Notes: generated from the sequence alone by a model not told the origin. Shown: positions 2,626 through 41,956, numbered from the stretch's first letter. The stretch: DNA of 64,000 nucleotides from an uncultured candidatus Porisulfidus sp. (GCA_965215125.1 OZ244052.1:256001-320000); one strand, 5' to 3'. A program made the numbers and translations.

Positions 2626-2691
2626 ATACGGATTTTAGCAATTACGCATATAATAGGCTTATAGCCGAAGTTTCCCCCCAAGTTGAATGGT

Positions 2692-16377: not shown

Positions 16378-16858
16378 AATAACTAAAAATAGAGAGTTGG
16401 TATTGAATATCATAGATGAGAAAACCAAACCGCCGGTTTTAGTGGTGCCTATTGCCGATAGACTGGGAATAGAAGTCTACAATGTACGAGGATGGAGCGA
16501 TAAGTTATCAGGGATGATAAGAAGAGATACAGAGGATGGCGGGAAAAGTGGTTATGCTATCTATGTAAATGCCAGACATGCTGAAACAAGACGACGGTTC
16601 ACCATTGCTCATGAAATAGCTCATTATGTATTACACAAAAATCTGATACGGGACGGAATAGTGGACGATACTCTATATCGTAGTGGATTGAGCAACCTTA
16701 TTGAAACGGAAGCCAACAGATTCGCCGCAGAGATTTTAATGCCTACACATTTGATTAGAGCAGCAATTAGAAAAGAATCCTCTATATCAAAATTAGCCGA
16801 GCAGTTTAAGGTGTCAAGCGAGGCAATGGCTATTCGGTTGCAAGTGCCTGAGAAGTAG
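16370..16858 (+). CDS. ImmA/IrrE-family zinc metallopeptidase
   Basis: RRRFTIAHEIAH (HExxH), ETEANRFAAEILMP, LAEQFKVS. Confidence 0.92.
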   Translation: MSEITKNRELVLNIIDEKTKPPVLVVPIADRLGIEVYNVRGWSDKLSGMIRRDTEDGGKSGYAIYVNARHAETRRRFTIAHEIAHYVLHKNLIRDGIVDDTLYRSGLSNLIETEANRFAAEILMPTHLIRAAIRKESSISKLAEQFKVSSEAMAIRLQVPEK

Positions 16859-16869
16859 CCTTAAGAAAG

Positions 16870-19917: not shown

Positions 19918-19926
19918 TTCAACCCA

Positions 19927-21828
19927 TTAAATGGTTTTGATGTCTGTTTCGGGGGACTTCAGCTTGAAAATCTGCTCTACATTTATTTTTACGCTATCAT
20001 CCTCAAAGCCGGAGTCTCTAAAAATTACTCTTAACGGTTTCCTCTCGGCAATTTCACGACACAATTCTTCCGTTACTTTTCCATCTTTTACAAAGCAAGC
20101 AGCAAGCGCATCATCATCTACAAAAAATACATCTATGCCCGACAGCTTTTCTTTTCTAATCGGGAGAGATAGGTCTACTCCCCAGCTAAGAAGCACTTGA
20201 AACAGGATATCTTCGGGGGTTCTGTCTGCTTTGATGTTATCTGCAACTTCTTCTATTTTCTGTTGTATTATTTCATCCGGTCGGTAGTAGACATCTTCCA
20301 TGTTACTGCTGTCAACTTTCAAGACTCTGAAGCCGATATCTAAGTCATCTGCATTGATTGAATCATCCTCAAGGAGATTTTTTTGCTTGTTTTTGCTTTC
20401 AGTTTCCTCCTTTATCTTTTTGCCTGCTAGGCGAATACGCTCTTTACCTATGTCTGCAATAGTCTTGAGTCCTTCCTTAAAAGCCTCCGATTTTTCATCA
20501 CAAGGTTCAGGCAACTGAACCATAATATATTTACGATTACCGCCATCATCTTTATTTAAGTCTATTACTGCATGAGCAGTTGTTGCAGAGCCTGAAAAAA
20601 AGTCTAAAACTATATGATTTTGTTTTGTAGAGTGAAAAACTAACTTTTTTATAAGTTTATAAGGTTTTACGGTTTCAAAACCATGATCGCGTTCAAGGAT
20701 TTTAGTTAATTCTTGTTTTGCAGATTCTGTTGTTCCCTCTTCTTTTGAGAAAAATGCCCAAAATGGTTTTGTTATCTGATTTCTTTCATCTTCTGGTCTC
20801 ATTTTTATATATAACTTCTCATTTTTTTTAAGAATATCTCCTCTTTTGTCGAATTCTCTAATTTTATCTAACCCCCATTTCCATTGCTTTCCTTCTCCAG
20901 GCTTTATTCCATGAATGCAAAAAATCATTGATTTTCTACCTCTTATACCAGATGCATTCATTTCCTCAATAAGGTGATAACGAAAATGGCCTCTTTGATC
21001 TTCTTCGGGATAAGTTTTTTCCTTTTTTATGTACACATTAAATCTTTGTTTCTTTTGCTTTCCATAGCAAAGAATATATTCAATTTTAGGCTGTAATTTA
21101 TTGAAAGAGTCGATCGTATTTTGAGATTTTGTTTTAGACTCCCATCCGATGCTTCCAACAAAATTTTCTGAACCGAAGATTTCATCGCACAACTTTCTTA
21201 AATTATCAACTTCATTATCATAAATGCTGATAAAAATAACTCCGTCGTCTCTTAAAAGATTCCTTACCAACTTTAATCGGGGATACATCATAGATAACCA
21301 GTCCGAATGAAATCGTCCGTTAGACGGGAGGTTGTTGATAAGCCGGTTGCCTAGGTCGTCAATTTGACCGCTTTTTTCAAGTTCGCTTTTCACATCGCGT
21401 CTAAAATTGTCTTTATAAATAAAATCGTTTCCCGTGTTATAAGGGGGATCAATATAGATCATCTTCACTTCCCCGAGATATGTCTCTTGCAGAAGTTTCA
21501 GCACATCTAAGTTATCTCCTTCAATAAATAAGTTTCTTGTTTTATCAAAATCAACACTTTCTTCTCTGCAAGGTCTTAAAGTTTTTTCAATGGAGGTATA
21601 TGCCGTATTCGAGGCTTTTTCTTTCCCGGGCCAATTGAGTTGATAGTATTCTTTCGCGCCTTCAACGACGGAATCCGAGAGTTCTTGTTTTAGAAGATCA
21701 AAGTCTATGGACTTTTTAATATTACCTTCATCGTCTTTACTTTCTACAACGCAGTTCGGGAACAGTTCCCCGATTTTTAGAATATTTTCATCCACAATGT
21801 TCGGTGTTTGTAATTTCAGTTTGTCCAT
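19927..21828 (-). CDS. mod: Type III R-M adenine methyltransferase, Mod subunit
   Basis: IYIDPPYNTG, HSDWLSMMYPRL, LDFFSGSATT; directly upstream of res. Confidence 0.93.
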   Translation of the reverse strand: MDKLKLQTPNIVDENILKIGELFPNCVVESKDDEGNIKKSIDFDLLKQELSDSVVEGAKEYYQLNWPGKEKASNTAYTSIEKTLRPCREESVDFDKTRNLFIEGDNLDVLKLLQETYLGEVKMIYIDPPYNTGNDFIYKDNFRRDVKSELEKSGQIDDLGNRLINNLPSNGRFHSDWLSMMYPRLKLVRNLLRDDGVIFISIYDNEVDNLRKLCDEIFGSENFVGSIGWESKTKSQNTIDSFNKLQPKIEYILCYGKQKKQRFNVYIKKEKTYPEEDQRGHFRYHLIEEMNASGIRGRKSMIFCIHGIKPGEGKQWKWGLDKIREFDKRGDILKKNEKLYIKMRPEDERNQITKPFWAFFSKEEGTTESAKQELTKILERDHGFETVKPYKLIKKLVFHSTKQNHIVLDFFSGSATTAHAVIDLNKDDGGNRKYIMVQLPEPCDEKSEAFKEGLKTIADIGKERIRLAGKKIKEETESKNKQKNLLEDDSINADDLDIGFRVLKVDSSNMEDVYYRPDEIIQQKIEEVADNIKADRTPEDILFQVLLSWGVDLSLPIRKEKLSGIDVFFVDDDALAACFVKDGKVTEELCREIAERKPLRVIFRDSGFEDDSVKINVEQIFKLKSPETDIKTI

Positions 21829-22493
21829 TAGATACCTTTCAGGGTTTCAATTTTTCTTTCAAGTGCTTTTATGTTGCTGTTGAGGTCAACCTGCCGGTTA
21901 AATTGTTCCTCTTTCCTAAGTCTCTTTTTCATTTTCTGTGCTTCCAGTTCTTTATTTTTTATCTCTTCAATCCTCTCAATATAAGCATTTATTTCTTCAT
22001 TTTCTCTCAACGGCACAGATAAAATCTTACATATTAATGCTTGATATAATTTCAACAAATTCAAAGTAGCAGGCAATTCGATTTTATCGGCATTTTCAGG
22101 CAACCAGCTACTTCTAAAATAACTGCTTATAACCCGTTTAGTTTTGTCGGCTTCGCTGACTCTCTTATAAGCCACAGCATAACAAACCTGATTCCGATAT
22201 CTTAAAACAAAAATAATCGGAGAGAGTATAGCTTTGTCTATCGCCATTAGCACTTCGTCATTCAGGCGTTTGGTTTTTAATGAAAGCGTGATGATTTGAA
22301 TCTCTCGCGGATATTGCTCGCAGGGTATATTGACGGTTCCGGGAGCAAGTTTATAGCTCCATACTATTTTCTCCACTTGTGATGTTAAATAGGATTTTAT
22401 TTTGGTATTCGGCTTTGCTTCCCGATAAATTTTCTCTTTGGGAATCTTTCTCTCAAATTTGGTACTGTCGGGAAAATCAAAAAGTGCGTTCAT
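21828..22493 (-). CDS. DUF4391-like protein
   Basis: IPKEKIY, W.YKLAP, C-terminal coiled coil with E.QFNRQV.LN; typical position between the helicase and mod. Confidence 0.8.
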   Translation of the reverse strand: MNALFDFPDSTKFERKIPKEKIYREAKPNTKIKSYLTSQVEKIVWSYKLAPGTVNIPCEQYPREIQIITLSLKTKRLNDEVLMAIDKAILSPIIFVLRYRNQVCYAVAYKRVSEADKTKRVISSYFRSSWLPENADKIELPATLNLLKLYQALICKILSVPLRENEEINAYIERIEEIKNKELEAQKMKKRLRKEEQFNRQVDLNSNIKALERKIETLKGI

Positions 22494-22494
22494 C

Positions 22495-25400
22495 TTAGGT
22501 CTGTTTGATAATAAAAAAAGTAATCAACTCAAAATCATCCATGTCGGAGAAACTCTCGGTTAATGCCGTCGTCTTGTCTTCTCTAAATAAACTATCAATA
22601 TCTTTTTCCCGATTCACTCCGCCAATAGATTCAAACGCACGCCGTAATAAATCGGAATATTTTGACATATCTTTTCCTTCTTTTGTCTCGGTATTAAACT
22701 TTTTGCAAAGACTCAATACGGGTTCTTTCATATTGTGGCAACGAGAACGAATAATATCTAAGATTTTCTTTACTTCTCCGTGATTCTTTATCACTTCTCC
22801 CTCTTCGGAGAGATAGACGAGGTAGTACGGATGAAGACGATTATATGAACTGATTTTCAGTTTTGAGTTTTTATTCTTAAGCACAAAAATAACGCCTGGG
22901 GATATGTCTAAGTTTTCATCCGGAGCAAAAATTGCATGCAATCCGTTGGGAAGGCTCTCTATACCTTGATTTTGATTCATATAGTTGAGTAAATCCATCC
23001 TGAAGTCGTTAAGCCCCAAGTCGGTTATGCTCACCCCGGTTTTAACATCTTCTAAATCTACCACCTCGTCTTGTAATTTTTTCAGTTGCGCTTTCCGATA
23101 AGACATATCGGATGACTGCGAGGCAAGCACATTGTCGTCGCCGGTGGCGGTGATGTCGGTTATTACCATCCTGTTTTCAACCCGTTCTTTCAAATTGATA
23201 TATTCGTCAAGGGAAATATCCGGCCAATAATTTACTAGCTGAATACTTTCATTAAGCGAACCGATTCTGTCTATGCGTCCTAGCCGTTGGATAATTCTTA
23301 CCGGGTTCCAATGAATATCGTAGTTAACGAGGTAATCGCAATCTTGTAAATTTTGACCTTCCGAAATGCAATCGGTGCCTATCAAAATATCAATCTCCGC
23401 ATCTATCTCGGAATACAATAAATCTTTCTCTTTAGAACGCGGAGAAAATAAAGTTAAGATAGTACGGAAATCATAACCTTTGCCGACCGTTGTTTGCGCA
23501 GTATCACTCCCTGTAACTTTGCCGAGATGCAGCCTTTGTTCTGAAAAGTGTTGTTTCAAATGCTCGTATAAATAATTGGCTGTATCCGAGAAGGCCGTGA
23601 AAACTATGACCTTTTTATTGTCTTCGTTAATCGGATGCTCGGTTTTTTCTTTAATGACACCCTTTAAGTGATTAAGTTTGAAATCATGTTCGGGAGAGAC
23701 TTTCCCCATAGAAACGAGTAAATCCTCCACCACAGTTAAATCCTCCTCAAGATCGCGTTTCCACGAAGGCACATCCATGTCCTCTAAACTCACCTTTGTT
23801 TTGTCTCCGATTGTCAAATTATCAAAGTCCGTGATGTCGCCACCCTCTTCCAAACTCCCCGTATTTTCTATTGCCATTTCTAGATACGAGAATTCTCCGG
23901 TTTCCTCATACTCATTAATTTTTTTTATTGTTTCATCGTGCCGATCTTTTAAGGATTGAAGGGTGAGTCTAAAAGAGTGTACGGAACTTTCCAATCTTTT
24001 TAATAGATTGACCGTCATTAAAGCACGCAAACATGTTTCTCGATCCCGTTGCTTAAAATTTTCTGTGTCGTAGAGATCTTCGTATTTCTTTCGCTTGCTC
24101 GGGTGAACAAAATTTATCGGCATATAGATTGAAAGCTTGAGTTGTTGCAATCTCGTATAGATTTCGTTGTAGCTATAAACATCTTCCCTTTGAGTCAATT
24201 TGCATCTATGAGAAATGGGTTTTTCCCTGACCGGGAAACGACCAATATCCTTGGTATCGTAAAAAGTTTCAATATGTTTTCTCGATCTAGCAATGGTGAC
24301 ATTGTCAAGCAGATGGAAAAAATCAAAACTAAGAGAATTCAAAATTGCTTCAACGGTTCGCTCTTCATTCGGTAGCTTGACCCATTCATTGAATACGGCT
24401 TGAGCATTACGGAAAATCTCATTAACGCTTTTTCCCGTATCAAATTGTTCTTCCCAGCCTTTTGAATCTCCTTCATACGCCAATGCCAGTTGATTTTTTA
24501 AGTCGCTAAATTTGTTATTGACGGGCGTTGCGGATAGCATCAAAACCTTTGTTTTTGCACCTGGACGGATTACAGAATTCATTAACCTTTGATAACGTGT
24601 TTCTCTATCCCTAAAGGCTTCATTGTTTCTAAAATTGTGCGACTCATCAATGACAAGAAGATCATAAGTTTCCCAGTAGACCTTATCAAGAGCAATCCCG
24701 CAAGATTCACCTCTGGTACGCTGAAGATCGGTATGATATAGAACATCATAGCGAAACTTATCTTCCGGGAAGATGTTCGTTTTTAGATTCTTGTTATAGT
24801 TTAACCAGTTATCCGCTAATCTTTTGGGACATAAGACCAAGACATCTTTGTTTCTCAATTCATAATACTTGATAACACCGAGTGCGGTAAATGTTTTTCC
24901 CAAGCCGACACTGTCCGCTAAAATGCAGCCGTTAAACTTTTCCAGTTTATTGATAATCCCTATAGTTGCATCTTTCTGAAAATTGTATAGCTTGTCCCAA
25001 ATTTGAGTTTTTTTATATCCTTTGCGCTCATTCGGAAGTTCATCTTCGTTCAGGTCGTCTAAAAATTCGCTAAATATGTTGTAGAGGGTGAGGAAATATA
25101 TTTTTTCCGGGGAGTTCTCTTGATAAACGGATTCAATATGATGAGAAATAGTTTCGGTCACCTCTTGCAACTTGGTTTTATCATTCCATATATCCCTAAA
25201 TAATTGCAGACACTGTTCCGTTTCGGGTGCATGATCAAATTTGCTGATGAAATTAGAAACAGCATCACCTTGCTGGTAGCCTATATCTACTGCAGTGAAA
25301 CCCTGAATAGGCATATACACGATATTTTTTCCGCTATGCTGAATTGCCGAAAATTGCTGCATAGGAATGTCGGATGTGTTTGACTTAAATTTCGCCTTTT

Positions 25401-25740
25401 TTCTAATCCACTCGGCACATTCTCTCGCAACAGCCTTTTGAGTAAGCTGATTTTTTAATTTGATTTCAAATTCGCTGCCGTATAGATTCTTCTGCCTTCT
25501 AATTTTAGGTATATAGAATTCCCTTCGCTGCCTGTTTCGCTTGTCCGTAACATCGTCCGGAGTAAAAGCCGGTGCCGTAAAAATAAACTCCAGAGCATCT
25601 ATCTTTGCTAATTCTCGCTTCAGATATTCAAATGCATAGATTGAAAAACAAGAAGCCGCAATTTTCAGCTTCGAACCCTTCCCGAGTTCCTTTTTTAAGT
25701 CATCTCCCCAACGAGTATTAACGTTGTCTATTATGGTCAT
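22495..25740 (-). CDS. SNF2-like SF2 helicase of the type III R-M operon
   Basis: LADSVGLGKT, IDESHNFRN, LSATP, TDCISEGQNLQ, QRLGRIDRIG. Confidence 0.9.
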   Translation of the reverse strand: MTIIDNVNTRWGDDLKKELGKGSKLKIAASCFSIYAFEYLKRELAKIDALEFIFTAPAFTPDDVTDKRNRQRREFYIPKIRRQKNLYGSEFEIKLKNQLTQKAVARECAEWIRKKAKFKSNTSDIPMQQFSAIQHSGKNIVYMPIQGFTAVDIGYQQGDAVSNFISKFDHAPETEQCLQLFRDIWNDKTKLQEVTETISHHIESVYQENSPEKIYFLTLYNIFSEFLDDLNEDELPNERKGYKKTQIWDKLYNFQKDATIGIINKLEKFNGCILADSVGLGKTFTALGVIKYYELRNKDVLVLCPKRLADNWLNYNKNLKTNIFPEDKFRYDVLYHTDLQRTRGESCGIALDKVYWETYDLLVIDESHNFRNNEAFRDRETRYQRLMNSVIRPGAKTKVLMLSATPVNNKFSDLKNQLALAYEGDSKGWEEQFDTGKSVNEIFRNAQAVFNEWVKLPNEERTVEAILNSLSFDFFHLLDNVTIARSRKHIETFYDTKDIGRFPVREKPISHRCKLTQREDVYSYNEIYTRLQQLKLSIYMPINFVHPSKRKKYEDLYDTENFKQRDRETCLRALMTVNLLKRLESSVHSFRLTLQSLKDRHDETIKKINEYEETGEFSYLEMAIENTGSLEEGGDITDFDNLTIGDKTKVSLEDMDVPSWKRDLEEDLTVVEDLLVSMGKVSPEHDFKLNHLKGVIKEKTEHPINEDNKKVIVFTAFSDTANYLYEHLKQHFSEQRLHLGKVTGSDTAQTTVGKGYDFRTILTLFSPRSKEKDLLYSEIDAEIDILIGTDCISEGQNLQDCDYLVNYDIHWNPVRIIQRLGRIDRIGSLNESIQLVNYWPDISLDEYINLKERVENRMVITDITATGDDNVLASQSSDMSYRKAQLKKLQDEVVDLEDVKTGVSITDLGLNDFRMDLLNYMNQNQGIESLPNGLHAIFAPDENLDISPGVIFVLKNKNSKLKISSYNRLHPYYLVYLSEEGEVIKNHGEVKKILDIIRSRCHNMKEPVLSLCKKFNTETKEGKDMSKYSDLLRRAFESIGGVNREKDIDSLFREDKTTALTESFSDMDDFELITFFIIKQT

Positions 25741-27223: not shown

Positions 27224-28162
27224 CTACTCGGTGGTTCTGTTTTTTAGCTGTTTAATCTCGTCAGCAGATAAACCTGTCAATTTTGAAATCTCAGAAATCT
27301 CATAACTCTCTTGCAACATATTCAGAGCAATTTTTCGGGCTTTGTTTACTTCGCCTTCTTCCATGACTTCTTCCATGATCTCTTGCTTTCTCAAGTGCCG
27401 TTCCCACTCTCGTCTCTCTATGGATATAGCGTTCCAGGCATCTATATCCTCTTTTGATATTTCCTCTAAATGTTTTAATGCCATCTTCGTCTCTCCGTCT
27501 TGTGATAAATGCTTTACTTGCTCGGCCGTCAATTCCGCCGAGTGCTTGATAATATAGCACCACCTATCCGTCATATCAACCAACTCAAGGTGGCTCTTGT
27601 TGAACTTGTTCAATTCCACTATCACCAACCCAAAATCCTTAGTCAATTCCTTATGCCGATGCTTACGCAGAGTGATCGTGGTTTCGTTTATATAGTCCTC
27701 TTCATCAAACACCGTGAACCGGGTAAACACCAGTAAGTAGCTCGGATTAATCTGACTAAACTTTTGTCCACGCTTCATACCATAAGAGTGCAACTGCACC
27801 CAATAAGCCAACATTCTACTAAAGAAGTCCTTTTGAGAATAGCCCTGCATCTCTATGTCGATATTCTCACCGCTATTTAATTTGACATGGAGGTCTAGCA
27901 CTACTTGTTTACCACCCGGTGTGCCCGGTGGGATAGAACTATCCTGCAGATGTAGCTTATCGCCCGATTGGTTTTGTTGATTTGCGGTTTCGGATGCAGG
28001 GTTGAATATGCCGGGGTTGAGTATCATCATATCCGGCGCATTATCGGGGATCGGCAGGAAGCTCTTAATCAACGAGAACAATACTTGCTTATTGCCTGAG
28101 AAGTATCGCTTAAAGGAAATATCTTTTGTCAAGTCTAAGTATCCGAGATGTTTTTCATCCAT
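27224..28162 (-). CDS. Rpn-family PD-(D/E)XK nuclease, paralog 2
   Basis: Start MDEKHLGYLDLTKDISFKRYF at 28162 with AGGAGA RBS; LDL...IEMQ; C-terminal HTH. The 59-aa upstream extension in the ORF track partly runs through repeat sequence. Confidence 0.9.
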   Translation of the reverse strand: MDEKHLGYLDLTKDISFKRYFSGNKQVLFSLIKSFLPIPDNAPDMMILNPGIFNPASETANQQNQSGDKLHLQDSSIPPGTPGGKQVVLDLHVKLNSGENIDIEMQGYSQKDFFSRMLAYWVQLHSYGMKRGQKFSQINPSYLLVFTRFTVFDEEDYINETTITLRKHRHKELTKDFGLVIVELNKFNKSHLELVDMTDRWCYIIKHSAELTAEQVKHLSQDGETKMALKHLEEISKEDIDAWNAISIERREWERHLRKQEIMEEVMEEGEVNKARKIALNMLQESYEISEISKLTGLSADEIKQLKNRTTE

Positions 28163-28286
28163 AGTAAATCTCCTATAAATTGGGTGTAAAACATCTACCC
28201 TAAACTTGGTATTGAGTAGGGGGAGAGACAAATAGATGAACGGTATATTAGAGGGTGATATTCCTCTCTGAAGGAGAGGGATTAAA

Positions 28287-28575
28287 TGGTGCAGACCCTT
28301 AGCAACCACCCCGTCAGGCTTCGCCTGCCACCCCTCCATAGGAGGGGAATTGACTGGTGCAGACCCTTAGCAACCACCCCGTCAGGCTTCGCCTGCCACC
28401 CCTCCATAGGAGGGGAATTGACTTATGCAGGTCCTTAACGACCACCCCGTCAGGCTGAATAGAACCGCCGATTGAACCAGTAGGTCAATCGGCTTGACTT
28501 TGTTCAGAACCTCAACATGACTGCTAAACGCATGCATTGCAAAATGCATAGGCCACCCTTCCACAGGAGAGGAAT
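28287..28575. repeat. Tandem 68-bp REP units followed by the composite repeat
   Basis: ACCACCCCGTCAGGC starts at 28305, 28373 and 28441; the third copy is interrupted by the hairpin element. Confidence 0.9.
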
Positions 28576-28621: not shown

Positions 28622-29752
28622 CTATTTATACAGTGCTATATACTCCGACAAAGCGAATAGCCTGTTCCTTGAGAAGCCGGTCACTTCTTTTAAGATCCCC
28701 ATGCTTTGAAAATCGTTTATCAATCTTCCGGTCGCAGCAACCCCGACCTCTAAATGCTGCGAGGCTCTCTTGATAGATACGATCGGATTAGAAAACAAGA
28801 ACAATAATAATTGTTGTGCCAATTTTGCTCTTCTTCCCATCGTTATGATTTCGGTTTCGTACCGTTTTTTTAGTTTGATGATAGCCTCCAGAGTTTCCTT
28901 TGCGCTTTTTGCCGTTTCAACAACTCCCGAGAGGAAAAATCTAATCCACTGGTCAAGGTCATTAGAGGCTCTTACCATACTTAACGAGTCATAATATGAT
29001 CCTTTATTACGCTCGAAAAAATCCGAGAGATAAAAGCATGGTTTATTCAATATCTCCGCCTTGACCAGTTGCAAGGTTATAAGTAGACGACCTATTCTTC
29101 CATTCCTGTCTAAAAACGGATGTATAGTTTCAATCTGATAATGACTTATCGCTATCCGAATGAGGTGCGGAAGATTTATTTTTTGGTTATGCCAAAATTT
29201 TTCGAGATCGCTTAATAAATCCGGCAAGTCTTGGTGGTGAGGCGGCACAAAAAAAGCATCTTTCAAACTTGAACCACCAATCCAGTTTTGGCTACTTCTT
29301 ATTTCACCGGGAAGTTTATGCCTCCCTCTTACACCGGAAAGTAATATTCTATGAACCTCCTTGAGTAATCTCATAGATAAAGGCAGTCTATTGAGTTCGT
29401 CTATTGCAAAATTCATTGCACTAATGTAATTTTGAACTTCCCCCCAATCGTCACGTCTTTCGGGATGAATTTCATTTTCAGGCAACACAACTTCGTCAAT
29501 GCCGGTTTTTTTCCCCTCAATTCGGCTAGAGGTCGTTGCTTCTTTCATCACATGCATCTTAATAAAAAAATCAACATCCGGCACAAGTGCGGAATAAGCA
29601 TTGAGTTCTCCGAGATAACGCATGGCATCTTCCAACAAGATAACGATCCTGTCGTCTTTCCAGTGATAATCGGTGTTTATTAACGACGGTAAAAAACTTT
29701 TGTATTTGTATTGCTGTTTGTAAGCCCCGGACTGATACTTATTTATAGGCAT
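28622..29752 (-). CDS. Fic-family protein with C-terminal HTH (variant motif [12 protein letters not shown])
   Basis: [10 protein letters not shown] inhibitory helix, [17 protein letters not shown](R)[17 protein letters not shown]. Confidence 0.9.
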
Positions 29753-29911
29753 GATTAGAATCTCATTTATATGTAAATTGAGGTTATATTATCATTTTTG
29801 GGACTTATAGCGATTAGTTGACAAACCACAATTATTAAAACTATTAGTTGACAAACAATCCTTTTAATTATTACAATAATCCCTATAATAGAAACACAAT
29901 TAGGAAAAGTC

Positions 29912-30838
29912 ATGGCGAAAAGATTAGCAAAAACATTAAGTCTATTTGACTTGATGAAGCAGTACCCTACTGAGTTAGATGCGATGAGGTACATAGAGCG
30001 TATGCAGTGGGGAGATACACTCTGTTGCACTCGTTGTGGAGCGACCGACAAAATTACTGAACGCGAAGACAAACTGGCAAACTATTGGTGCGGTTATTGT
30101 CGCAAATACTTTAATGCTAAGACCGGCACACCGTTGGAACATAATCGTATCCGTGACCAAAGAGTGTGGATATACGCTGCGTATTTGTTAATAACTGCCC
30201 GCAAAGGTATTAGCGCAATGCAACTTCACAAGGAACTTTCTATTAGCTATAAAGCAGCTTGGTATCTACTGCACAGACTACGGCTTGCTTGCGGTCATCA
30301 TCTGGCAGCCTTGCGTGGTGAGGTTGAAATAGACGAGACCTATATAGGCGGTAAAGAAAAGAACAAGCATGAAAGGAAGCGATTAAAGGTGGGTGGCGGG
30401 GCCGGCGGTAAATCTACCATACTCGGCCTGCTGCAGCGAGGCGGTCAGTTGATAGCAATGCCGATAAGCGACACCACCAAACAAACGCTACATCCGATTA
30501 TTAGGGATAACATTATGTCGGGTAGCACTTTATACACAGACGATAACCCGTCCTACACAGGAGCCTATAGAAGACATCAAGTCGTCAACCATTCGGCAAA
30601 GCAATATGTTAATGGTATGGCACACACTAATAGCATAGAAAGTGTATGGGCTTTGCTGAAGCGCGGATACAACCGAACCTATCATAACTGGAGCATGAAG
30701 CATTGCCGGCAATATGTAAATGAGTTTGCCTTCCGTCTCAATGACAGGAATTGTGAGAGAGATACGCAGGATCGGCTAGATAGCCTGTTTTCTATGATGA
30801 CAGGCAAGCGAATAACTTATACGAAATTAACCTCATAG
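29912..30838 (+). CDS. IS1595-family transposase
   Basis: Zn ribbon (CTRC...CGYC), VEIDETYIGG, YTDD, VNHS, HTNSIES.W..LKR, Y.NEF.FR.N. Confidence 0.95.
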   Translation: MAKRLAKTLSLFDLMKQYPTELDAMRYIERMQWGDTLCCTRCGATDKITEREDKLANYWCGYCRKYFNAKTGTPLEHNRIRDQRVWIYAAYLLITARKGISAMQLHKELSISYKAAWYLLHRLRLACGHHLAALRGEVEIDETYIGGKEKNKHERKRLKVGGGAGGKSTILGLLQRGGQLIAMPISDTTKQTLHPIIRDNIMSGSTLYTDDNPSYTGAYRRHQVVNHSAKQYVNGMAHTNSIESVWALLKRGYNRTYHNWSMKHCRQYVNEFAFRLNDRNCERDTQDRLDSLFSMMTGKRITYTKLTS

Positions 30839-31373: not shown

Positions 31374-32525
31374 TTAGATTAGTGTATTTTTCTCTAGGGT
31401 TTTTAAGAAATTTTTAAGTGTATATACCTCTAAGGAATCGGCTTTTAGATTTTTATCACCTAAATAAACTCCGATAGCTCTATCGATAAATTTCTGCGCT
31501 TTGACTTTCTTAAGATATTTGCCGAATTCCCTCTTCCAAACCTTAGAAGATTTAAGTTCTATTCCGATTCTTTGAGCGTTTATTTCTACAAGAAAGTCTA
31601 TTTCGGAATTATGGTATGTTTTACAAAAGCTGATTTTTGCGCCCCAGTCATGAATCTGATTCCATGCTTTCAGTTCGTGGAGCAGATAAGTTTCCAAAAG
31701 AAATCCTTTATCGTAATCGTGTATGGGGTCTCGCAACTGCCCTCTCAAAGCTCTGACGACACCCGTATCAAAAAAGAAAAATTTAGGATGAATTGCCGTT
31801 TTGACCCGTGCTTTTGTCCTCCACGCGGGGAGCCAAAAACCAATGAGCGTGTCTTCTAGTGCTTGAAAGTATCCCATAACGGTAGTTCTGGCAACACCCG
31901 AATCTCTTGCCAACGAGGCGATGTTGATTGTTTGAGCATTGCATAGGGAGGCGATGTCTAAAAAATTAGAGAAACTGTTCATGTTTTTTACTATGGCTTC
32001 TTGTTGTATTTCTTCTCGCAAGTAGATTAGCGAATAGGATTCTAAAAATTCTATTTTTTGTTTCACTGTTTTTAGGTTAAGACTTTCGGGTAGAGTCCCG
32101 AATCGTAGAATATCGTCCCATTTATCTATTTGATGCTCGGAATAAATCAGAGGATAAAAATATCTTTGACTGGCTCGTCCTCCCAATAAATTAGTCGAAG
32201 TTCTTTTGAGTTTTCTAGCACTAGAACCCGATAGGATGAATTGTTTGTTGTTGTCCCTTTGTGCCAGAAAATGATGAACATCGTCCAACAGAATAGGAAG
32301 TTTTTGGACTTCGTCGATTATAACGATTGAATCTTCGGGGATGGCGGATATCTCTTGGCGGAATAATTCCGGGTTTCTACGAAGTTTTAGATAAAGAGAA
32401 GGATTGAGGAGGTCATAAAAAATGGCTTTTTTATAGCGGTTCTTAAGCCAAGTGGATTTGCCCGTTCCTCTAGGTCCTAAAATAAAGAAAGATCTGTCTG
32501 AAGAGGTAAAGATTCTTTTGTACAT
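31374..32525 (-). CDS. AAA+ ATPase (AAA_14 / DUF4143 type), paralog 2
   Basis: GPRGTGKS, IDEVQK, LSGSSARKL, KFFFFDTG, EIDF...IELKS. Confidence 0.88.
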   Translation of the reverse strand: MYKRIFTSSDRSFFILGPRGTGKSTWLKNRYKKAIFYDLLNPSLYLKLRRNPELFRQEISAIPEDSIVIIDEVQKLPILLDDVHHFLAQRDNNKQFILSGSSARKLKRTSTNLLGGRASQRYFYPLIYSEHQIDKWDDILRFGTLPESLNLKTVKQKIEFLESYSLIYLREEIQQEAIVKNMNSFSNFLDIASLCNAQTINIASLARDSGVARTTVMGYFQALEDTLIGFWLPAWRTKARVKTAIHPKFFFFDTGVVRALRGQLRDPIHDYDKGFLLETYLLHELKAWNQIHDWGAKISFCKTYHNSEIDFLVEINAQRIGIELKSSKVWKREFGKYLKKVKAQKFIDRAIGVYLGDKNLKADSLEVYTLKNFLKTLEKNTLI

Positions 32526-32659
32526 AACGAAAGATTAGCACAAAAGTTAAAAAATGTATAGTTTGTTGTCAAAATTACCATAAAAATGACATCTGATATA
32601 GCATTTTTAAGTGAGGGATAACATCGGTACCAGCACTATACTAGCGCAGATACGCCACA

Positions 32660-33140
32660 ACCACCCCGTGGAAAGGCTTTACATTTTGTAATATGTACTA
32701 AGATTCTGCACAACGTTACGCCGATTGATTTTGATATATGTAATATCCCTAATGGACACGATATTTAGATTTTGTACGAAGTTACGCCACTTGACCTACT
32801 GGCTTAAGTGGCGGGTTTACTCGGCGATAATCGGCGGTTCTATTCTGCCCCTACTGGCTCAATCGATGGTAGTCGGTATAGTGAAAGAACCTGAAATTAC
32901 ACGATTACTGCGTTATGCAAGGCATTGTATTTGCACATCGCTACCGCTTTGAACCTATGAGAACAAGCCCTAGCTTGTTTGGCCTACATACCAATGCTAA
33001 GTCGGGCTGTTGAAAAAGTATCCACAAACTGTAGGACGGTACATTGGATGGGTAGCGAGTGCTTTCACGCCTATCTTTAGTTGAAAAAGTATCCACAAAC
33101 TTTAGGACGGTACATTCCCCTCCTTTGGAGGGGAATTAAC
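32660..33140. repeat. Mosaic of REP, hairpin-element and MITE-end fragments
   Basis: Hairpin variant at 32785; GTAG REP at ~32960-32990; (GGGCTG)TTGAAAAAGTATCCACAAACT at 33004 and 33081. Confidence 0.75.
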
Positions 33141-33195
33141 TGGTGCAGATACGATAGAGCTGTTGAATATAAGCCGTACTATGCGGCTAAAGTGC

Positions 33196-33954
33196 TTAGC
33201 CGAAGGTTTTTGCCATCCATCTGACTTCTCCGATAATCTCCGCAGAGCTCGGAAACGACTCGGGCTTTGATTTCGGATGGTCGGCAATTAACTGCCATTT
33301 ATCTTGGTTTTTGCTAAGCCGCCTGACAACGAGATTATCACCGATGCGTATTGCGTAGATACGCTCCTGCCGTCGGCGGTATCGTGAAAGGTCTACCAAA
33401 ACTATTGAGTGGCTTGCTATGGTGGGTTCCATCGATTGATCTAGGATTTGCACGATAAGGCAGTATTCCGGATTCAAACCTTGTCCGTTAAACCAACTTT
33501 CCTGAAAAGATATATGACCCACAGCGCGTTTTTTCTTATCGACCGGAGTGTCATCCATAGCGGCATTAGTCTCAAAAATAGGAATCCGATACATACTACC
33601 TAATTTTGAACCTTTATACGATTTGCCGGTTTTTGATGTTTGCTTTAGGATTTTACGAGGAGGTAATCGAGATATTATCTCTTCAAGCATATCGAACATA
33701 GTTTGCTTTTCGCTAACGGCACGAACCGAAGGTGATTTTTGATGATATTTGGGACCTACATAAAACTCTAGGTTTAGGACATCGCATAAAGCGCAAAATC
33801 TCTCCACCGAGGGTACGCGCCCACGACGCATATTGCGAATAAGTTCGGGAGTGCCGGTCGCAAGAAGGGAGGCTTGGCGGGCAGAGATACCCTGCTCATC
33901 GAGGGCACGGTCAATAATTCTTAAGAGGTCTTTGCTTGAAACACGTTTATTCAT
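33196..33954 (-). CDS. Phage cI-like repressor (HTH + degenerate S24 peptidase domain), copy 1
   Basis: N-terminal HTH (SARQAS...LIRNMRRGRVPSVER); DQSMEPTI; LVVRRL; IIGEVRW. Confidence 0.9.
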   Translation of the reverse strand: MNKRVSSKDLLRIIDRALDEQGISARQASLLATGTPELIRNMRRGRVPSVERFCALCDVLNLEFYVGPKYHQKSPSVRAVSEKQTMFDMLEEIISRLPPRKILKQTSKTGKSYKGSKLGSMYRIPIFETNAAMDDTPVDKKKRAVGHISFQESWFNGQGLNPEYCLIVQILDQSMEPTIASHSIVLVDLSRYRRRQERIYAIRIGDNLVVRRLSKNQDKWQLIADHPKSKPESFPSSAEIIGEVRWMAKTFG

Positions 33955-33991
33955 AATAAGGGAATTATCCCTTATTGCATGAAATATGCAA
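33955..33991 (-). promoter_or_regulatory. Operator palindrome and putative near-leaderless promoter of cI copy 1
   Basis: AATAAGGGA-ATTA-TCCCTTATT at 33955-33976; minus strand TTGCAT-16-GATAAT-9-ATG. Confidence 0.7.
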
Positions 33992-34084
33992 GTAGAAAAT
34001 TGTTTTGTGCCTGCGGATAGTTATCGTGAATTAGATGGTGAACGCGCTCATCGTGCGAGTACGGTACTTTGGGGAGGGCATTTT

Positions 34085-34237
34085 GAATCGCCGATTAATC
34101 CACTGAGTTAATCGGCGCGACATTGTACAGAATCTTAGCACGATTGCTAAATGCATGTATTACAAAAACCACCCCATCAAGCGGAGCCCGCCACCCTAAG
34201 GGCAGATATACGAGTCTGCCCCTAAAAGGAGGGGAAT
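34085..34237. repeat. Hairpin-element variant plus REPs
   Basis: CGCCGATTAA-N9-TTAATCGGCG; degenerate ACCACCCC REP containing GGGCAGATATACGAGTCTGCCCCTA. Confidence 0.75.
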
Positions 34238-34256
34238 GGTCGGCACCTATGGGTGG

Positions 34257-35012
34257 TTAGCTGAAGGTTTTGGCCGTCCATTTTACTTCTCCGATAATCT
34301 CTGCAGAATCCGGAAAGGATTCGGATTTCAATTTCGGATAGTCGCTGACGAGCTGCCATCCATTTTTGTTCTTATCAAGACGCCTAACGACAATATCATC
34401 GTTGATTCGTATTGCGTAGATATTCCCTATTCGGCGACGGCATCTCGAACGATCAATCAGGACTATAGAACGCTTTGATATTGTCGGTTCCATAGATTTT
34501 TCTTGGACTGCCATAATAACGCAATGTTCAAAATCCAGCTTATGCCTAGCAAACCAATCGCAATGAAAAGCGATATGACATGGCTTTTGATAATCTTCGT
34601 TAGCTGTTGTTTTGTTTGTGGTAGCTTTCATTTCAAGAATGGGAATATAGCGAATTAGATCCGACTCCGAAACATACGATGCCTTAGGTTCTGCCATTTT
34701 CCGGTAAGAACTATTAGGCGGCAATCGGGACATTATTTCTCGGAACATGCTGTATATCATTCCTTTATCTTCAGCTGAGTTAGTTAAATCTGACCGTTTG
34801 GGACGTGACGGGCCTATATAAAATTCTAATTTGAGCACCTCGCATAAAGCACGAATTCTTTCTACCGAAGGTATGCTACCACGGCGTATACCGCGAATAA
34901 GTTCGGGACCTCCGGTTGCCAGAATGGAGGCTTGACGGGCAGACATGCCTTGCTTATTTAGAGCCTGATCAATAATTTTTAAGAGAGCTTTAGCTGAAAG
35001 GTCTTTATTCAT
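34257..35012 (-). CDS. Phage cI-like repressor (HTH + degenerate S24 peptidase domain), copy 2
   Basis: Paralog of 33196-33954; EKSMEPTI; IVVRRL; IIGEVKW. Confidence 0.9.
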   Translation of the reverse strand: MNKDLSAKALLKIIDQALNKQGMSARQASILATGGPELIRGIRRGSIPSVERIRALCEVLKLEFYIGPSRPKRSDLTNSAEDKGMIYSMFREIMSRLPPNSSYRKMAEPKASYVSESDLIRYIPILEMKATTNKTTANEDYQKPCHIAFHCDWFARHKLDFEHCVIMAVQEKSMEPTISKRSIVLIDRSRCRRRIGNIYAIRINDDIVVRRLDKNKNGWQLVSDYPKLKSESFPDSAEIIGEVKWTAKTFS

Positions 35013-35013
35013 A

Positions 35014-35358
35014 CGAGGGAATTATCCCTTATTACAGAAAATATGGCAAATAAAAATTACCCCAAAAGTGGAGAATTATAGTCATATCAGAGAGGGAATT
35101 ATTCCTCATTACAGAAAATATAGCAAATAAAAATTACCCCGAAAGTTGAGAATTATAATCATATCGGAACCTGAAAGTGGTATTTGTTCATCGTTGCATG
35201 TATATAAAATTTGTGGGAATACCTAAAAAACCACCAATATACAATAACTTTTATATTCTTCTGTCATTCATCTTTTATGCTAAAATGACTTGTGATCTTG
35301 CTTATTGACATAAGGTTAATTTACCCTAAAATAATCTATATGAGGGAAATTGACCTTA
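35014..35358. promoter_or_regulatory. Divergent cI/cro control region with four operator-like palindromes
   Basis: Sites at 35014, 35091, 35311 and 35341 resemble TAAGGGAATTATCCCTTA; minus TTGCCA-17-GATAAT-8-ATG; plus TTGACA(35305)-16-TAAAAT-7-ATG(35340); ~77-bp direct duplication at 35015/35092. Confidence 0.75.
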
Positions 35359-35603
35359 TAAAGATTAGTAGAAAATACACACATGCCAAAAAGATTAGTC
35401 TCTCGAGGCTAGGCTTCTTGGCAGTGAAAGACGGCAAATTCTTTTCCAGACTGGAAAAAGGAAGTAGCTGCACACTTCGCACGGCGAGGCGTGTTATCCA
35501 ATATCTCTCGGATAGGTGGCCACCGGGACTGAAATGGCCATCGGACATTCGGCGACCTCCGATATCTTCTAGTCCGAAAAGAAAATCCGTACAAAACACT
35601 TGA
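35340..35603 (+). CDS. Cro-like small DNA-binding protein
   Basis: Divergent from cI; SLSRLGFLAVKDGKFFSRLEKG..CTLRTARR...WP...WP.DI.RP resembles the small phage regulators found opposite S24 repressors. Confidence 0.7.
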   Translation: MREIDLIKISRKYTHAKKISLSRLGFLAVKDGKFFSRLEKGSSCTLRTARRVIQYLSDRWPPGLKWPSDIRRPPISSSPKRKSVQNT

Positions 35604-35785
35604 CAAGGACTAAAAGAATAGGGTATAAATACTACTTAAGACGATTACAAGGATGTTCTGTATTAATTGATTTTTTGCTAAAATATGTAAGATTACTTTT
35701 CATTGGTTGCCTCCTATGAGGCCCTTGAGGCGGTCTCTTCCCCCCTCCGACCGCCTCCCTCTTTTGAGGAAACAACTCCGATTAA

Positions 35786-36766
35786 TCACCCCTCATAAAA
35801 CTTTTTTCTAATCTCCTGCAATGTTAAACGCTTTTTTTTCATTGCGTAAATCCGTTCTACACGTTTAATCATATCGGAGTCGTATAGCTGATATCCTGCT
35901 TCGGTAACTTCGGCAACTTCAAGCAATCCTTTTTTTGTCCAATATCTAATAGTGGAATTATTTTCGGATACTTTCCCGGCTAGTTCTCCTATTTTTAACA
36001 ACTTGGTATCGTAATCAATTATCGCACTTTCACCTTGAGCCGCTTTGAGATAAATATCTAAAGAACGATTTATCGCCTTAGCGATAAGCTTCAAATAATC
36101 GTCTTTAGAACCACCCGCCTGCGCTTTCTCTAACGCCGTTATGTAGGCTAAACGTTCTCGTTTTGCGATAATCGCCGGCGGGTAACCGGACATCAATAAA
36201 ATCATATTCATCATTAGTCTGGCAGTTCTACCGTTGCCGTCTACGAAAGGGTGTATACTCACCAAACGATAATGCGCCTCCGCTGCCAAATCTATCGGAT
36301 GGATGTTGTCCGCTGTCTTAATCCATTTTATAAATTCAGTCATCATATCCGGTACTTTGATTGGATTAGGCAACACAACCGTAGAACCGGATATACGTAC
36401 TGCTACCGTACGGTAACAACCGGCGTTAGCATCATCTATACCTCGCAGGATCGTATTGTGTATTTGTAAAATATCTCTTTGTTTGAAGCTACCGGGTTTG
36501 CGGTTGACTTGCTCATGCACCCAATCCAATGCGCAGGCATGGTTTGTAGCTTCCAAATGTTCAGCCAGCAATCTACCTCCGACCGTCAAACCCTTATCAA
36601 CTACCAGAGCAGTCTCACGGCGCGTCAAAGTATTACCCTCAATCGCATTGCTGGTATAAGTCAGTTCTACTCGAAACCAGTCCTCTAAATTTCGAACCAG
36701 CACGCTCGGTAACGGACGGAACCGATCGAGCTGCTGCTTTTTTTCTGTGAGTAGTTCATAGTTCAT
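35786..36766 (-). CDS. Fic-family protein with C-terminal MerR-type HTH
   Basis: TYTSNAIEGNTL, HPFVDGNGRTAR, C-terminal LKIGELA...STIRYW...GYQLY...LTLQEI. Confidence 0.9.
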   Translation of the reverse strand: MNYELLTEKKQQLDRFRPLPSVLVRNLEDWFRVELTYTSNAIEGNTLTRRETALVVDKGLTVGGRLLAEHLEATNHACALDWVHEQVNRKPGSFKQRDILQIHNTILRGIDDANAGCYRTVAVRISGSTVVLPNPIKVPDMMTEFIKWIKTADNIHPIDLAAEAHYRLVSIHPFVDGNGRTARLMMNMILLMSGYPPAIIAKRERLAYITALEKAQAGGSKDDYLKLIAKAINRSLDIYLKAAQGESAIIDYDTKLLKIGELAGKVSENNSTIRYWTKKGLLEVAEVTEAGYQLYDSDMIKRVERIYAMKKKRLTLQEIRKKFYEG

Positions 36767-36819
36767 AGAATAAACCATAAACCATAAAGTTATGGTTGTC
36801 AATATCTTAAATTTATAAC

Positions 36820-40316: not shown

Positions 40317-40522
40317 AATGTCTGCACTAAAAGTACCGCTCGCTACGGATAATGCGTTTACCCACCAATTTAAAACAACTACCCGTAGAAGCAGACTAAA
40401 TGGTATAACATACCTATTAGATTAATCAATATTGAGGTGCTACACGGTATCAAGAAATTACAGTGCAAAGCGTGAATAAAAAATCTACCATTTAGTAAGA
40501 CCTGCTAAAATACTTGCCGACA

Positions 40523-41956
40523 ATGACTATAGAATTAACAAAAGATTGGATCAAAAACTTAAAAACAGAGAAGGCTTATAACCTTTCGAGTCTCTTTTTG
40601 GACAATACCAAACCCAGAGAAGTTCTTTTTATATTGCAAAACCTAGGGCATCTGTCTACTAATTTCGACGATAGTTGTATCTTGCCTTTGGTAACCGATA
40701 AAAACCAGAAGATCCGTCTTTGGTCAATTAAAACATTAGGCAAAACCAAAAAAATAAAAAACCTACATGTGTTAGAAAAAGTAGCATATCGGGATACATC
40801 AACCGAGGTTAGAAGAGAAGCAATTTCCTCTATCGGTAGAATCAAGGATAAAGTGATTATTCCTACTCTAATCAAATTTCTTAACGACGATGATCCTAAA
40901 ATTGTTTTGCAAGCAATTAGAGGGCTTCTAACTTTTAGGACAGAACCTAAAGTCTGCCATGTACTTAAGAAATGTGCAACACATCCCAATGAAACGGTAC
41001 AGAAAGTCATTAAAAAAGAGTTTTTATCGGAAAATAAAACAATACCTAGAGAACAAAACCACCCTCAATCTTATCCTTTCTTAAAAAATGTGGTCGTGTT
41101 GGGCGATGTGAGAAAGACATTGAAGTATGTACCCGATGAGAGTTTTCATCTCACTTTTACATCGCCACCATACTATAACGCGAGAGATTACTCTATCTAC
41201 AAAAGTTATCGTGAGTACTTAGATTTTCTGAAAGAGGTTTTTTCCCTAACTTATAACAAAACCAAAGAAGGTCGTTTTCTAATAGTCAATACATCACCAA
41301 TTATTATTCCTAGAGTAAGCCGTCGGTATTCCAGCAAGCGATACCCCATACCCTTTGATATTCATAATTTTTTAGTGCCGATGGGTTGGGATTTCATAGA
41401 CGATATCGTCTGGGTGAAACCTGAATCCAGCGTCAAAAATAGAAATGCAGGCTTTTTACAGCATAGAAAACCACTTGCATATAAACCGAATACCGTAACC
41501 GAATATCTAATGGTCTATAGAAAAAAAAGCGATAAATTAATAGACTGGAATATCCACCAATACGACTCGAATACCGTTAACGATAGTAAAGTCAAAGATG
41601 GTTATGAAACATCCAATGTGTGGGAAATTGACCCCAAACATAACAAAATTCATTCGGCAGTTTTCCCCGACAGTTTATGCAAACGAGTCATAGAATATTA
41701 TTCCTTCAAAAATGATTTAGTGTTTGACCCGTTCGCCGGAAGCGGCACTTTCGGCAGAGTGGCTAAGTGCCTTAATAGATTTTTTTTCCTTACCGAAAAA
41801 GAATCCAAGTATTTCAATTATATAAAAGCCTCTTTTTCTAAAGAGGGCACTTTGTTTGAGAAAGAAGAAAAGAGAAACTCCTTTCTATGTCTGGATGAAT
41901 TTGGGACTGTTGAAAAAGTGCTGGCATCGCAAAAATCCAACCGCTATGCGCTGTGA
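40523..41956 (+). CDS. HEAT-repeat domain fused to a beta-class DNA methyltransferase (probably N4-C)
   Basis: N-terminal HEAT-like units (IRLWSIKTLG, VRREAISSIG, IVLQAIRGL); TSPPYY, HSAVFP, DPFAGSGT. The C-terminus is replaced by a MITE insertion. Confidence 0.88.
   Translation: MTIELTKDWIKNLKTEKAYNLSSLFLDNTKPREVLFILQNLGHLSTNFDDSCILPLVTDKNQKIRLWSIKTLGKTKKIKNLHVLEKVAYRDTSTEVRREAISSIGRIKDKVIIPTLIKFLNDDDPKIVLQAIRGLLTFRTEPKVCHVLKKCATHPNETVQKVIKKEFLSENKTIPREQNHPQSYPFLKNVVVLGDVRKTLKYVPDESFHLTFTSPPYYNARDYSIYKSYREYLDFLKEVFSLTYNKTKEGRFLIVNTSPIIIPRVSRRYSSKRYPIPFDIHNFLVPMGWDFIDDIVWVKPESSVKNRNAGFLQHRKPLAYKPNTVTEYLMVYRKKSDKLIDWNIHQYDSNTVNDSKVKDGYETSNVWEIDPKHNKIHSAVFPDSLCKRVIEYYSFKNDLVFDPFAGSGTFGRVAKCLNRFFFLTEKESKYFNYIKASFSKEGTLFEKEEKRNSFLCLDEFGTVEKVLASQKSNRYAL

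Follow-up and report, generated by a model that had tools for sequence, protein, structure and literature searches.

A phage-type repressor and Cro-like cassette without other phage genes, and the very probable loss of self-cleavage in its two S24 repressors

The cassette described here consists of two phage-type repressor genes (A and B) and a divergent gene for a small Cro-like protein. It lies in a stretch of 64,000 nucleotides (G000:C1:256001-320000, hereafter the window, meaning the whole stretch analysed) of the closed genome of an uncultured candidatus Porisulfidus sp. (2,220,706 bp; G000 below), and coordinates are counted from the first letter of the window. A reading of this DNA made from the sequence alone had described two diverged cI-like genes and a divergent cro-like gene, and open reading frame (ORF) calls, S24 matches and a match to phrog_7669 bear this out at the following positions.

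33196..33954, minus strand: repressor paralog A, 252 amino acids, from ORF call and Pfam.
34257..35012, minus strand: repressor paralog B, 251 amino acids, with Ser173 kept and Arg210, from ORF call and Pfam.
35340..35603, plus strand: Cro-like gene, 87 amino acids from its best start (ATG at 35340), phrog_7669, four-helix XRE-like fold, divergent from A and B.

A and B are 52% identical across their full length and both match Peptidase_S24 of Pfam (PF00717; E 2.3e-15 for A and 1.5e-14 for B). The AlphaFold model of A (predicted local distance difference test score, pLDDT, 72.5) has a four-helix XRE-like helix-turn-helix (HTH) domain at residues 7-60, a linker with a helix at 82-95 and an S24-fold beta domain at 121-248. 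Its best Foldseek matches are the C-domain of lambda cI (2hnf, 1.2e-8), LexA, UmuD' and 186 CI, with values from 1e-8 to 1e-5 for the lambda cI C-domain, LexA and UmuD'. The third helix (the recognition helix) falls at residues 38-43 of this model, and the recognition helices as quoted in the sequence-only reading (LIRNMRRGRV in A and LIRGIRRGSI in B) do differ in the alignment. No Pfam HTH match, including HTH_3 of the XRE family, was obtained for the two repressors or the Cro-like protein, whereas PF01381 is present in a single short relative of the repressor N-domain. The three proteins are also without a match in PADLOC.

Nothing else of a phage was recognised around these genes. Virion, replication, prophage-integrase, cII and lysis genes were all absent from the window ORFs scanned, in agreement with the earlier statement that no phage genes lie nearby. 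The sole Phage_integrase-family gene in the window (2683-3600) has a SAM-like N-domain, adjoins a dsbC-type gene 30 kb from the cassette and is read as XerD-like from its sequence. Insertion sequence (IS) transposases lie near the cassette, which sits at the edge of an island of low guanine-plus-cytosine (G+C) content (14-42 kb of the window), and the window outside this island carries housekeeping genes. With no phage genes in the window and no operators elsewhere, the cassette gives no sign of residing in, or controlling, a phage or prophage genome.

The two repressors keep the nucleophile of the S24 self-protease and have exchanged its lysine partner. Ser174 of A and Ser173 of B align with S119 of LexA, SMEPT being the nucleophile-serine motif, and Arg211 of A and Arg210 of B align with LexA K156 and with the lysine of the repressor of Pelagibaca phage vB_PeaS-P1 (VVRRL versus VTVKRL and RVKRI). 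Three alignments concur in this placement, namely phmmer of A against Pseudomonas and E. coli LexA, a 25-sequence profile against E. coli LexA, and BLASTP against the vB_PeaS-P1 repressor (E 1e-13), so that the lysine-to-arginine change with serine kept, as first proposed for both proteins, is upheld by LexA and phage alignments alike. The lysine four residues further on (RLSK or RLDK), which the same proposal had named as a possible general base that would refute it, aligns with non-catalytic LexA positions, so that the refuting case does not arise. The Ala-Gly cleavage site, also said to be lost in both, is indeed replaced by Ala-Met in A (ETNAA/MDD, Ala132-Met133, versus EASLAA/GAG of vB_PeaS-P1) and by Thr-Thr in B (MKAT/TNK). 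One HMMER alignment, of A with Pseudomonas aeruginosa LexA, instead sets RAV/GHI on the cleavage site, and that glycine is unconserved in the family. The vB_PeaS-P1 repressor keeps SMQPT, RVKRI and LAA/GAG, and with them the lysine and the bond that are lost in A. As judged from these alignments, both repressors have very probably lost RecA-stimulated self-cleavage.

The same position varies widely among relatives. An alignment of 25 sequences was built from A, B and 23 of the 29 non-self full-length hits (P0004, P0006, P0008, P0010, P0011 and P0021 were omitted), and in it the dyad reads Ser-Lys in 7 proteins, Ser-Arg in 14 and Ala-Arg in 4. On a maximum-likelihood tree these states require seven changes, and well-supported branches force at least two of them for Ser-Lys and at least two for Ala-Arg. 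Within the genus, the codon at this position of B is AGG (Arg) in three genomes, as in Arg210 here, and AAG (Lys) in one, the B orthologue of congener G003, one transition apart. The linker loop expected to hold the scissile bond is the most variable stretch of the alignment, with a six-residue indel and no bond conserved across the 25 proteins. By this comparison, the dyad is unconstrained within the repressor family. A literature search for the exchange of lysine for arginine in S24 repressors and LexA turned up no paper on repressors of the arginine type, though such papers may exist.

The only other S24-fold protein of the genome follows the same pattern. It is a stand-alone protein of 112 amino acids (G000:C1:964320-964655, equivalent to L019:1459-1797) that keeps the serine (GDSMFP) and reads FIFRQL where lambda cI has FTFKKL, which puts arginine at the position of Lys192. 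This protein occurs in 41 of 41 related genomes, and arginine was found in 23 of the 23 loci that could be parsed out of 30 fetched. As the residue is conserved in such a core protein, the arginine may serve a separate function. The dyad lysine is thus missing from all three S24-fold proteins of the genome, which fits a lineage in which self-cleavage driven by activated RecA (RecA*) is no longer used. RecA itself is present, and canonical LexA above the TIGR00498 cut-off is absent from this genome and its four congeners (0/5 genus genomes); among the 31 genomes searched, G000 included, only two have a LexA above that cut-off. The idea that the repressors are SOS-proof is weakened, being partly moot where no canonical LexA was found in the genus genomes.

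These data also bear on the possibility that the repressors are still inducible, either because the arginine or a neighbouring lysine serves as base at a non-canonical bond, or because Lon/ClpXP or an antirepressor removes them. We consider this improbable, although several observations speak for it. The serine is kept in both proteins and SMEPT is nearly invariant in the family; K215, four residues after R211, is about 90% conserved; the CI of phage AmM-1 pairs serine and arginine with an intact Ala-Gly; the constant arginine of the 112-residue protein indicates that Ser-Arg S24 domains can be under constraint; and RecA is present. IrvR of Streptococcus mutans is reportedly a LexA-like protein that departs from the RecA paradigm. 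On the other hand, the serine has become alanine in 4 of the 25 relatives and lysine and arginine flip repeatedly, no bond is conserved in a linker loop that tolerates indels, and K215 aligns with positions that are not catalytic in LexA.

If the S24 domain is no longer a protease, it may be kept for dimerisation. Complex prediction with two copies of residues 118-252 of A scored 0.48, with 0.00 for the best control. Among proteins solved as pairs of one chain 20 of 30 reach the mark, against 1 of 23 among those solved as single chains; these counts hold only roughly here, as a custom alignment was supplied for the prediction. Contacts agreed by at least 88% between runs and the partner pLDDT was at least 80. 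The predicted interface (residues 154, 177-178, 198-199 and 243-252) includes the invariant W154, P177, T178, I199 and W246, and the residues that are invariant in the 25-sequence family include M175, P177, T178, I199, Y200, G242 and W246. C-domain dimers of LexA and cI are known from solved structures, so the score may mirror this likeness only. The conservation pattern of the domain fits retention for dimerisation and not for catalysis. Proteins of about 140 amino acids (P0031-P0054, and locus L044 of genome G418) carry the repressor N-domain at 58-75% identity with a helical C-domain in place of S24, and in G418 one of them is divergent from two tandem Cro-like genes, which indicates that the same switch exists with another oligomerisation domain.

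The Cro-like protein matches phrog_7669 (3e-22), and its family comprises 788 representative clusters at E <= 0.001. Neither the protein itself nor any of 47 relatives matches a Pfam family. Its AlphaFold2 model (pLDDT 87) has four helices in the same layout as the repressor N-domain, and the weak Foldseek rows of this model are almost all XRE-type HTH proteins (HipB, C-proteins, SinR and 434 Cro). Among isolated phages the window protein itself matches one, Agrobacterium phage Rivra, where the homologue lies between annotated CI and CII. A tblastn search of the phage collection with a viral-contig relative gave nine records representing seven distinct phages. In the five isolated phages that were opened, the homologue is divergent from a gene of 229-249 amino acids with S24 motifs. 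Including the uncultivated virus genome L114/L147, each of the six phage sequences examined has the phrog_7669 homologue opposite a repressor-type gene of 208-249 amino acids (Rivra, Rhizobium phage RR1-A, vB_PeaS-P1, Aurantimonas phage AmM-1, phiAX1 and L114/L147; the phage hits H4 and H6 are outside this count). As judged from this gene arrangement, the Cro-like gene is a true partner in the switch. The repressors of RR1-A, vB_PeaS-P1 and phiAX1 have the Ser-Lys dyad and the Ala-Gly motif (in phiAX1 by eye from the translation), and the repressor-type gene of Rivra is Ser-Lys. The CI of AmM-1 (L150:932-1681, AB967974, AmM1_58) is Ser-Arg with its TAAG intact (DLVRRT versus IYIKRS of RR1-A), so that arginine at the dyad position is not unique to the orphan cassette. 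A scan of JGI metagenomes returned five loci, all with N-domain-only or about 25% identical relatives, and no new context.

The control regions of the three genes contain a recurring palindrome that coincides with promoter-like elements.

33959..33972, no strand: candidate operator O_A, AGGGAATTATCCCT, with arms GGGA and TCCC around a 4-nt spacer and GATAAT on the gene strand, ending 4 nt before the A ATG.
35016..35029, no strand: candidate operator O_B1, the identical 14-mer, 3 nt before the B ATG.
35093..35106, no strand: candidate operator O_B2, which differs by one mismatch and belongs to the second 77-bp module copy.
35015..35168, no strand: tandem duplication of the B promoter/operator module, 2 x 77 bp, 91% identical.
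33964..33991, minus strand: putative A promoter, TTGCAT-16-GATAAT, found by eye and below the scan threshold, 9 nt before the ATG.
35021..35049, minus strand: B promoter-like site, TTGCCA-17-GATAAT (10/12), 8 nt before the ATG.
35098..35126, minus strand: second promoter-like site, TTGCTA-17-AATAAT (9/12), in the upstream module copy.
35305..35332, plus strand: promoter-like site ahead of the Cro-like gene, TTGACA-16-TAAAAT, with 11/12 the best of the region, 7 nt before the ATG at 35340.
34171..34187, minus strand: terminator-like hairpin with T-run, between B and A.

The spacer of the Cro-like promoter-like site holds a 16-bp near-palindrome recognised by eye and related to the repressor-promoter palindrome, AAGGTTAATTTACCCT (35312-35327). 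Because the promoter-like -10 sites sit 7-9 nt before the start codons and a Shine-Dalgarno sequence at the usual distance is absent before all three genes, the mRNAs of A, B and the Cro-like gene are probably leaderless or nearly so. The region between the Cro-like gene and B is conserved in four genomes and spans 327 bp here, versus 57-165 bp in phages; two copies of its 77-bp module are present in G000 and G003, and one copy in G001 and G004. The spacer between B and A (33955-34256) is wholly different between congeners except for the last 60 bp or so before the A ATG; the A promoter element within the conserved part is shared by three genomes and recurs before A in G003, where this gene has moved. 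A second palindrome, TTGCAT-N5-ATGCAA over the -35 of A, was dropped as an A-specific candidate since it is not conserved in G001 and G004. Rfam gave no match at E <= 0.1 on 32400-36000.

Within this genome the 14-mer is confined to this locus. At up to one mismatch a whole-genome scan of the 2,220,706 bp found three sites, all at the A and B promoters, and no copy near any other gene. Outside the genome, 69 IMG/VR loci carry the exact 16-mer, and in one of them (L114) the site abuts the ATG of an HTH and S24 (Ser-Lys) repressor. This locus has a second GGGA-N4-TCCC site by motif scan, a third by eye, and a Cro-like homologue (E 3.6e-8) across a 57-bp spacer; the L114/L147 contig (62% G+C) also encodes an O-like replication gene, an antiterminator and a tail gene. 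In Acetobacter phage phiAX1, GGGAATTATCCC likewise abuts the repressor start. The repressors A, L114 and phiAX1 have a common third-helix motif, (E/D)(L/F)IR(N/D)(M/W), and phages with other helices have other palindromes, also abutting the repressor start and with a TATAAT-like centre. This co-variation of palindrome and third-helix motif suggests that GGGA-N4-TCCC is the operator of this HTH subfamily. Two further viral loci with a second 14-mer-like site, L097 and L145, encode no homologue of A, B or the Cro-like protein. The proposal that A and B provide two specificities is weakened: their recognition helices differ, but both promoters carry the identical 14-mer.

Among related genomes the family was found only within the genus of the window. 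It has members in 5 of 41 such genomes, namely 4 of 4 congeners and the genome itself, whereas 36 genomes from other genera yielded none. Translation confirms the order znuA-zur-znuCB-FicMerR-Cro-like-B(-A) in loci L001 and L003. In L002 the ORF sizes give the same arrangement, and the B and A genes there were confirmed separately. Ratios of nonsynonymous to synonymous substitution rates (dN/dS) between orthologues range over 0.25-0.43 in A and 0.10-0.36 in B, and are lowest, at 0.02-0.06, in the Cro-like gene (dS 0.18-0.81). By domain, the repressors give 0.08-0.26 for the N-domain, 0.30-0.62 for the linker and 0.16-0.39 for the C-domain. As the Cro-like gene is the most constrained part, these ratios argue for a switch that is actually used and not merely for a repressor left on.

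Prophage debris evolving neutrally and awaiting deletion, the outcome that the sequence-only reading had set against itself, is accordingly very hard to sustain. The low-G+C island with its IS elements would suit such remains, and so would two congeners, one having A disrupted by an IS and another (G002) having a sole relative that is 32-36% identical. Against this stand the intact frames in the genomes compared, dN/dS well below 1 (0.02-0.43, lowest in the Cro-like gene) and the conserved intergenic control region. Because frames are intact, dN/dS is low and the context is conserved, the locus appears domesticated.

In G003 the A orthologue occupies a different chromosomal site (L004:5719-8408) and is split by an insertion of about 1.9 kb. 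The insertion carries a 401-amino-acid ORF with an HTH, probably a transposase, and residues 122-133 of A occur twice at the joint. Downstream of the split gene come Fic and DUF4143 ATPase genes. As A has its own promoter at its separate site in G003, and is followed by Fic and/or DUF4143 genes in the four genomes compared, the tandem cI-cI pair of the initial picture may in fact consist of two separate units placed side by side.

The genes on either side of the cassette are themselves of defence or toxin type.

35786..36802, minus strand: Fic-MerR fusion gene, convergent with the Cro-like gene, matching the SoFic and PDC-S04 models of PADLOC.
31374..32525, minus strand: AAA_14/DUF4143 ATPase, the next gene downstream of A, PADLOC PDC-S01.

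Fic-MerR is a conserved neighbour in L001 and L003, and L002 has an ORF of similar length in the corresponding position. Downstream of A, and in its orientation, lie the ATPase (G000 and G001), Fic (G004) or both (G003). The low-G+C island as a whole holds a type III restriction-modification system with SNF2 and DUF4391 genes, a CapP-like protease, SoFic, the PDC-S01-type ATPase, Fic-MerR, PD-(D/E)XK transposases and IS elements. Its defence block (15943-25740) begins with a small ORF and a CapP-like M78 peptidase (16370-16858, PADLOC capP 9e-32), followed by type III restriction enzyme and methylase genes, DUF4391 and a helicase of SNF2 type. A SoFic-type Fic gene in 28622-30838 (PADLOC 5.8e-112) adjoins an IS1595-family transposase, and PD-(D/E)XK transposase-family genes lie at 14152-15132 and 27224-28339. 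Close to A, a 37-nt repeat occurs twice around 33009-33116 (97% identical, 71 bp apart) and short elements are found in inverted copies at 32695-32726 and 34110-34141. Further along the window, 40514-41956 encodes a fusion of an N-terminal HEAT-repeat part with an N6/N4 DNA methylase domain, alone in low-G+C DNA, and an open frame of more than 3,300 codons (54035-64000) runs past the window end.

This setting raises the possibility that the cassette regulates the flanking defence or toxin genes and is not an immunity device, with the B/Cro unit gating Fic-MerR and the A unit heading an A-Fic-DUF4143-ATPase islet, so that expression would be bistable or heterogeneous. We regard this as unlikely overall, yet as a reading to be taken seriously. 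The conserved adjacency on both sides would be explained by it, as would the A unit that sits elsewhere in G003 with its promoter and operator, the PADLOC assignments of the neighbours and the very strong constraint on the Cro-like gene, which fits a switch in real use. A precedent is the cI/Cro-like remnant of CP-933P, which controls a toxin-antitoxin pair (PMC8630535). However, the operator is not repeated close to other genes, B is followed by a terminator-like hairpin, and a 9-bp G+C-rich hairpin, seen by eye, stands between the Cro-like gene and Fic-MerR. Between A and the genes downstream there are about 670 bp of repeats and, in G000, an IS1595 element as well. Moreover, islands of this kind commonly hold DUF4143 ATPase and Fic genes (a further DUF4143 gene is at 7903-9036), so the adjacency may reflect a hotspot only.

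On balance we lean, if not by much, towards an orphan, domesticated and RecA-independent immunity cassette of phage type. In such a cassette the S24 domains of A and B would no longer be self-proteases triggered by RecA* and would be kept as dimerisation modules. The dimers would bind the GGGA-N4-TCCC palindromes, whose centres hold the -10 elements of the repressors' own leaderless or near-leaderless promoters, and would thereby regulate their own synthesis. The opposing player would be the XRE-type Cro analogue, transcribed divergently from a strong, leaderless promoter with its own near-palindrome. The outcome would be a self-contained double-negative switch that the classical SOS route could not flip. 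Its most likely payoff is constitutive immunity of the repressor type against temperate phages that use this operator class, with control of the flanking Fic and ATPase defence genes as a close second. Of the earlier suggestion of a domesticated region giving superinfection immunity, the first half is well served by the phage-less cassette and the purifying selection, and the second is without direct support: a scan of IMG/VR with the repressor family alignment gave 33 pattern matches, none of which encodes a repressor relative, and the sequences that share the operator core are a contig of 62% G+C and an Acetobacter phage.

Several points weigh against this immunity cassette. Seven relatives, including the B orthologue of G003, keep Ser-Lys, and arginine is no proof of inactivity. 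A Lys-to-Arg LexA mutant is said to autodigest still at very high pH, and as the CI of an isolated phage, AmM-1, combines serine and arginine with an intact TAAG, some CIs that bear arginine may still work. None of the nine sequencing runs listed is an RNA run. Promoter-like sites in the region are not above chance (8 versus 7.0 +/- 2.7), so that it is their position and conservation that carry the argument. The A and B promoters share one palindrome, and its co-variation with the third helix cannot assign binding to A, B or the Cro-like protein. The likeness of the Cro-like protein to the repressor N-domain is in register but weak in hhalign (probability 28%, E 6e-4), and Foldseek gave no match for its model at E <= 0.001 (best E 0.49). 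Finally, IMG/VR and genome scans found no phage of this host with the operator, and so no target for the immunity.

A bolder combination would have a phage immunity switch rebuilt as a RecA-independent chromosomal toggle in a symbiont lineage in which no canonical LexA was found, each cleavage-dead repressor being paired with a Fic-type gene and gating a defence or toxin module. We think it doubtful, at about the level of the still-inducible repressors. If true, it would add a previously undescribed regulatory layer to defence islands (B/Cro with Fic-MerR, and A with Fic/SoFic and the DUF4143 ATPase), and the arginine of all three S24 proteins could mark a lineage-wide shift from self-proteases to non-proteolytic modules.

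As an orphan immunity cassette, the locus would indicate that the smallest core of the decision circuit of a temperate phage (a repressor, a Cro analogue and operators in leaderless promoters) can outlive the phage, and that selection has long held this core in a small symbiont genome while the DNA-damage trigger decayed. The states Ser-Lys, Ser-Arg and Ala-Arg form a natural series within one family for asking what an S24 domain does without cutting. The HTH/operator pair (GGGA-N4-TCCC) in common with phage sequences is a possible basis for a test of cross-immunity.

Comparison with known systems places the cassette among several partial counterparts. With the lambdoid cI/Cro switches it shares a repressor of HTH and S24 fold divergent from a small HTH protein, a palindrome with a -10 element abutting the repressor start, and a Cro analogue with a likeness to the repressor N-domain; homology to A is detectable in the vB_PeaS-P1 repressor, and phiAX1 and L114 share the operator core. 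It differs from these switches in its lack of phage genes, in the exchange of lysine for arginine and the loss of Ala-Gly, in its two repressor paralogs, and in its long intergenic region with a duplicated 77-bp module. The CI of AmM-1 has the same Ser and Arg dyad and is also divergent from a phrog_7669-type gene, but it keeps TAAG and lies within a complete phage genome. An orphaned repressor and Cro-like pair that is kept and controls neighbouring genes is also known from DicA/DicC of the Qin cryptic prophage of E. coli; DicA is not known to have an S24 domain, and Qin is still recognisable as a prophage.

A further counterpart is PaaR2/YdaS/YdaT of the cryptic prophage CP-933P of E. coli O157:H7, described as an SOS-insensitive, leaderless and bistable remnant of cI/Cro type (PMC8630535). 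Both systems have a cI-like and Cro-like pair in a non-functional phage context, a cI-like gene that is leaderless (probably so here; lambda cI is leaderless, and likewise PaaR2) and an adjoining toxin-type module. According to the same paper, PaaR2 is without a peptidase motif altogether, whereas an S24 fold with serine and without lysine is present here; CP-933P is a recognisable prophage, whereas nothing else of phage, no YdaT/CII analogue and two paralogs are found here. The LexA of Synechocystis (sll1626) is a non-cleaving regulator of S24 fold used as an ordinary repressor (PMC1524924). As described there, it has lost serine and Ala-Gly, where A and B have lost lysine and Ala-Gly, and it has a winged-helix N-domain and no Cro partner. 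Given the CP-933P remnant, the non-cleaving LexA and the arginine of AmM-1 CI, the initial description of the locus as a strong candidate for an undescribed system was overstated: comparable SOS-blind remnants and non-cleaving relatives of LexA are already in print, and the cassette is no new class of system.

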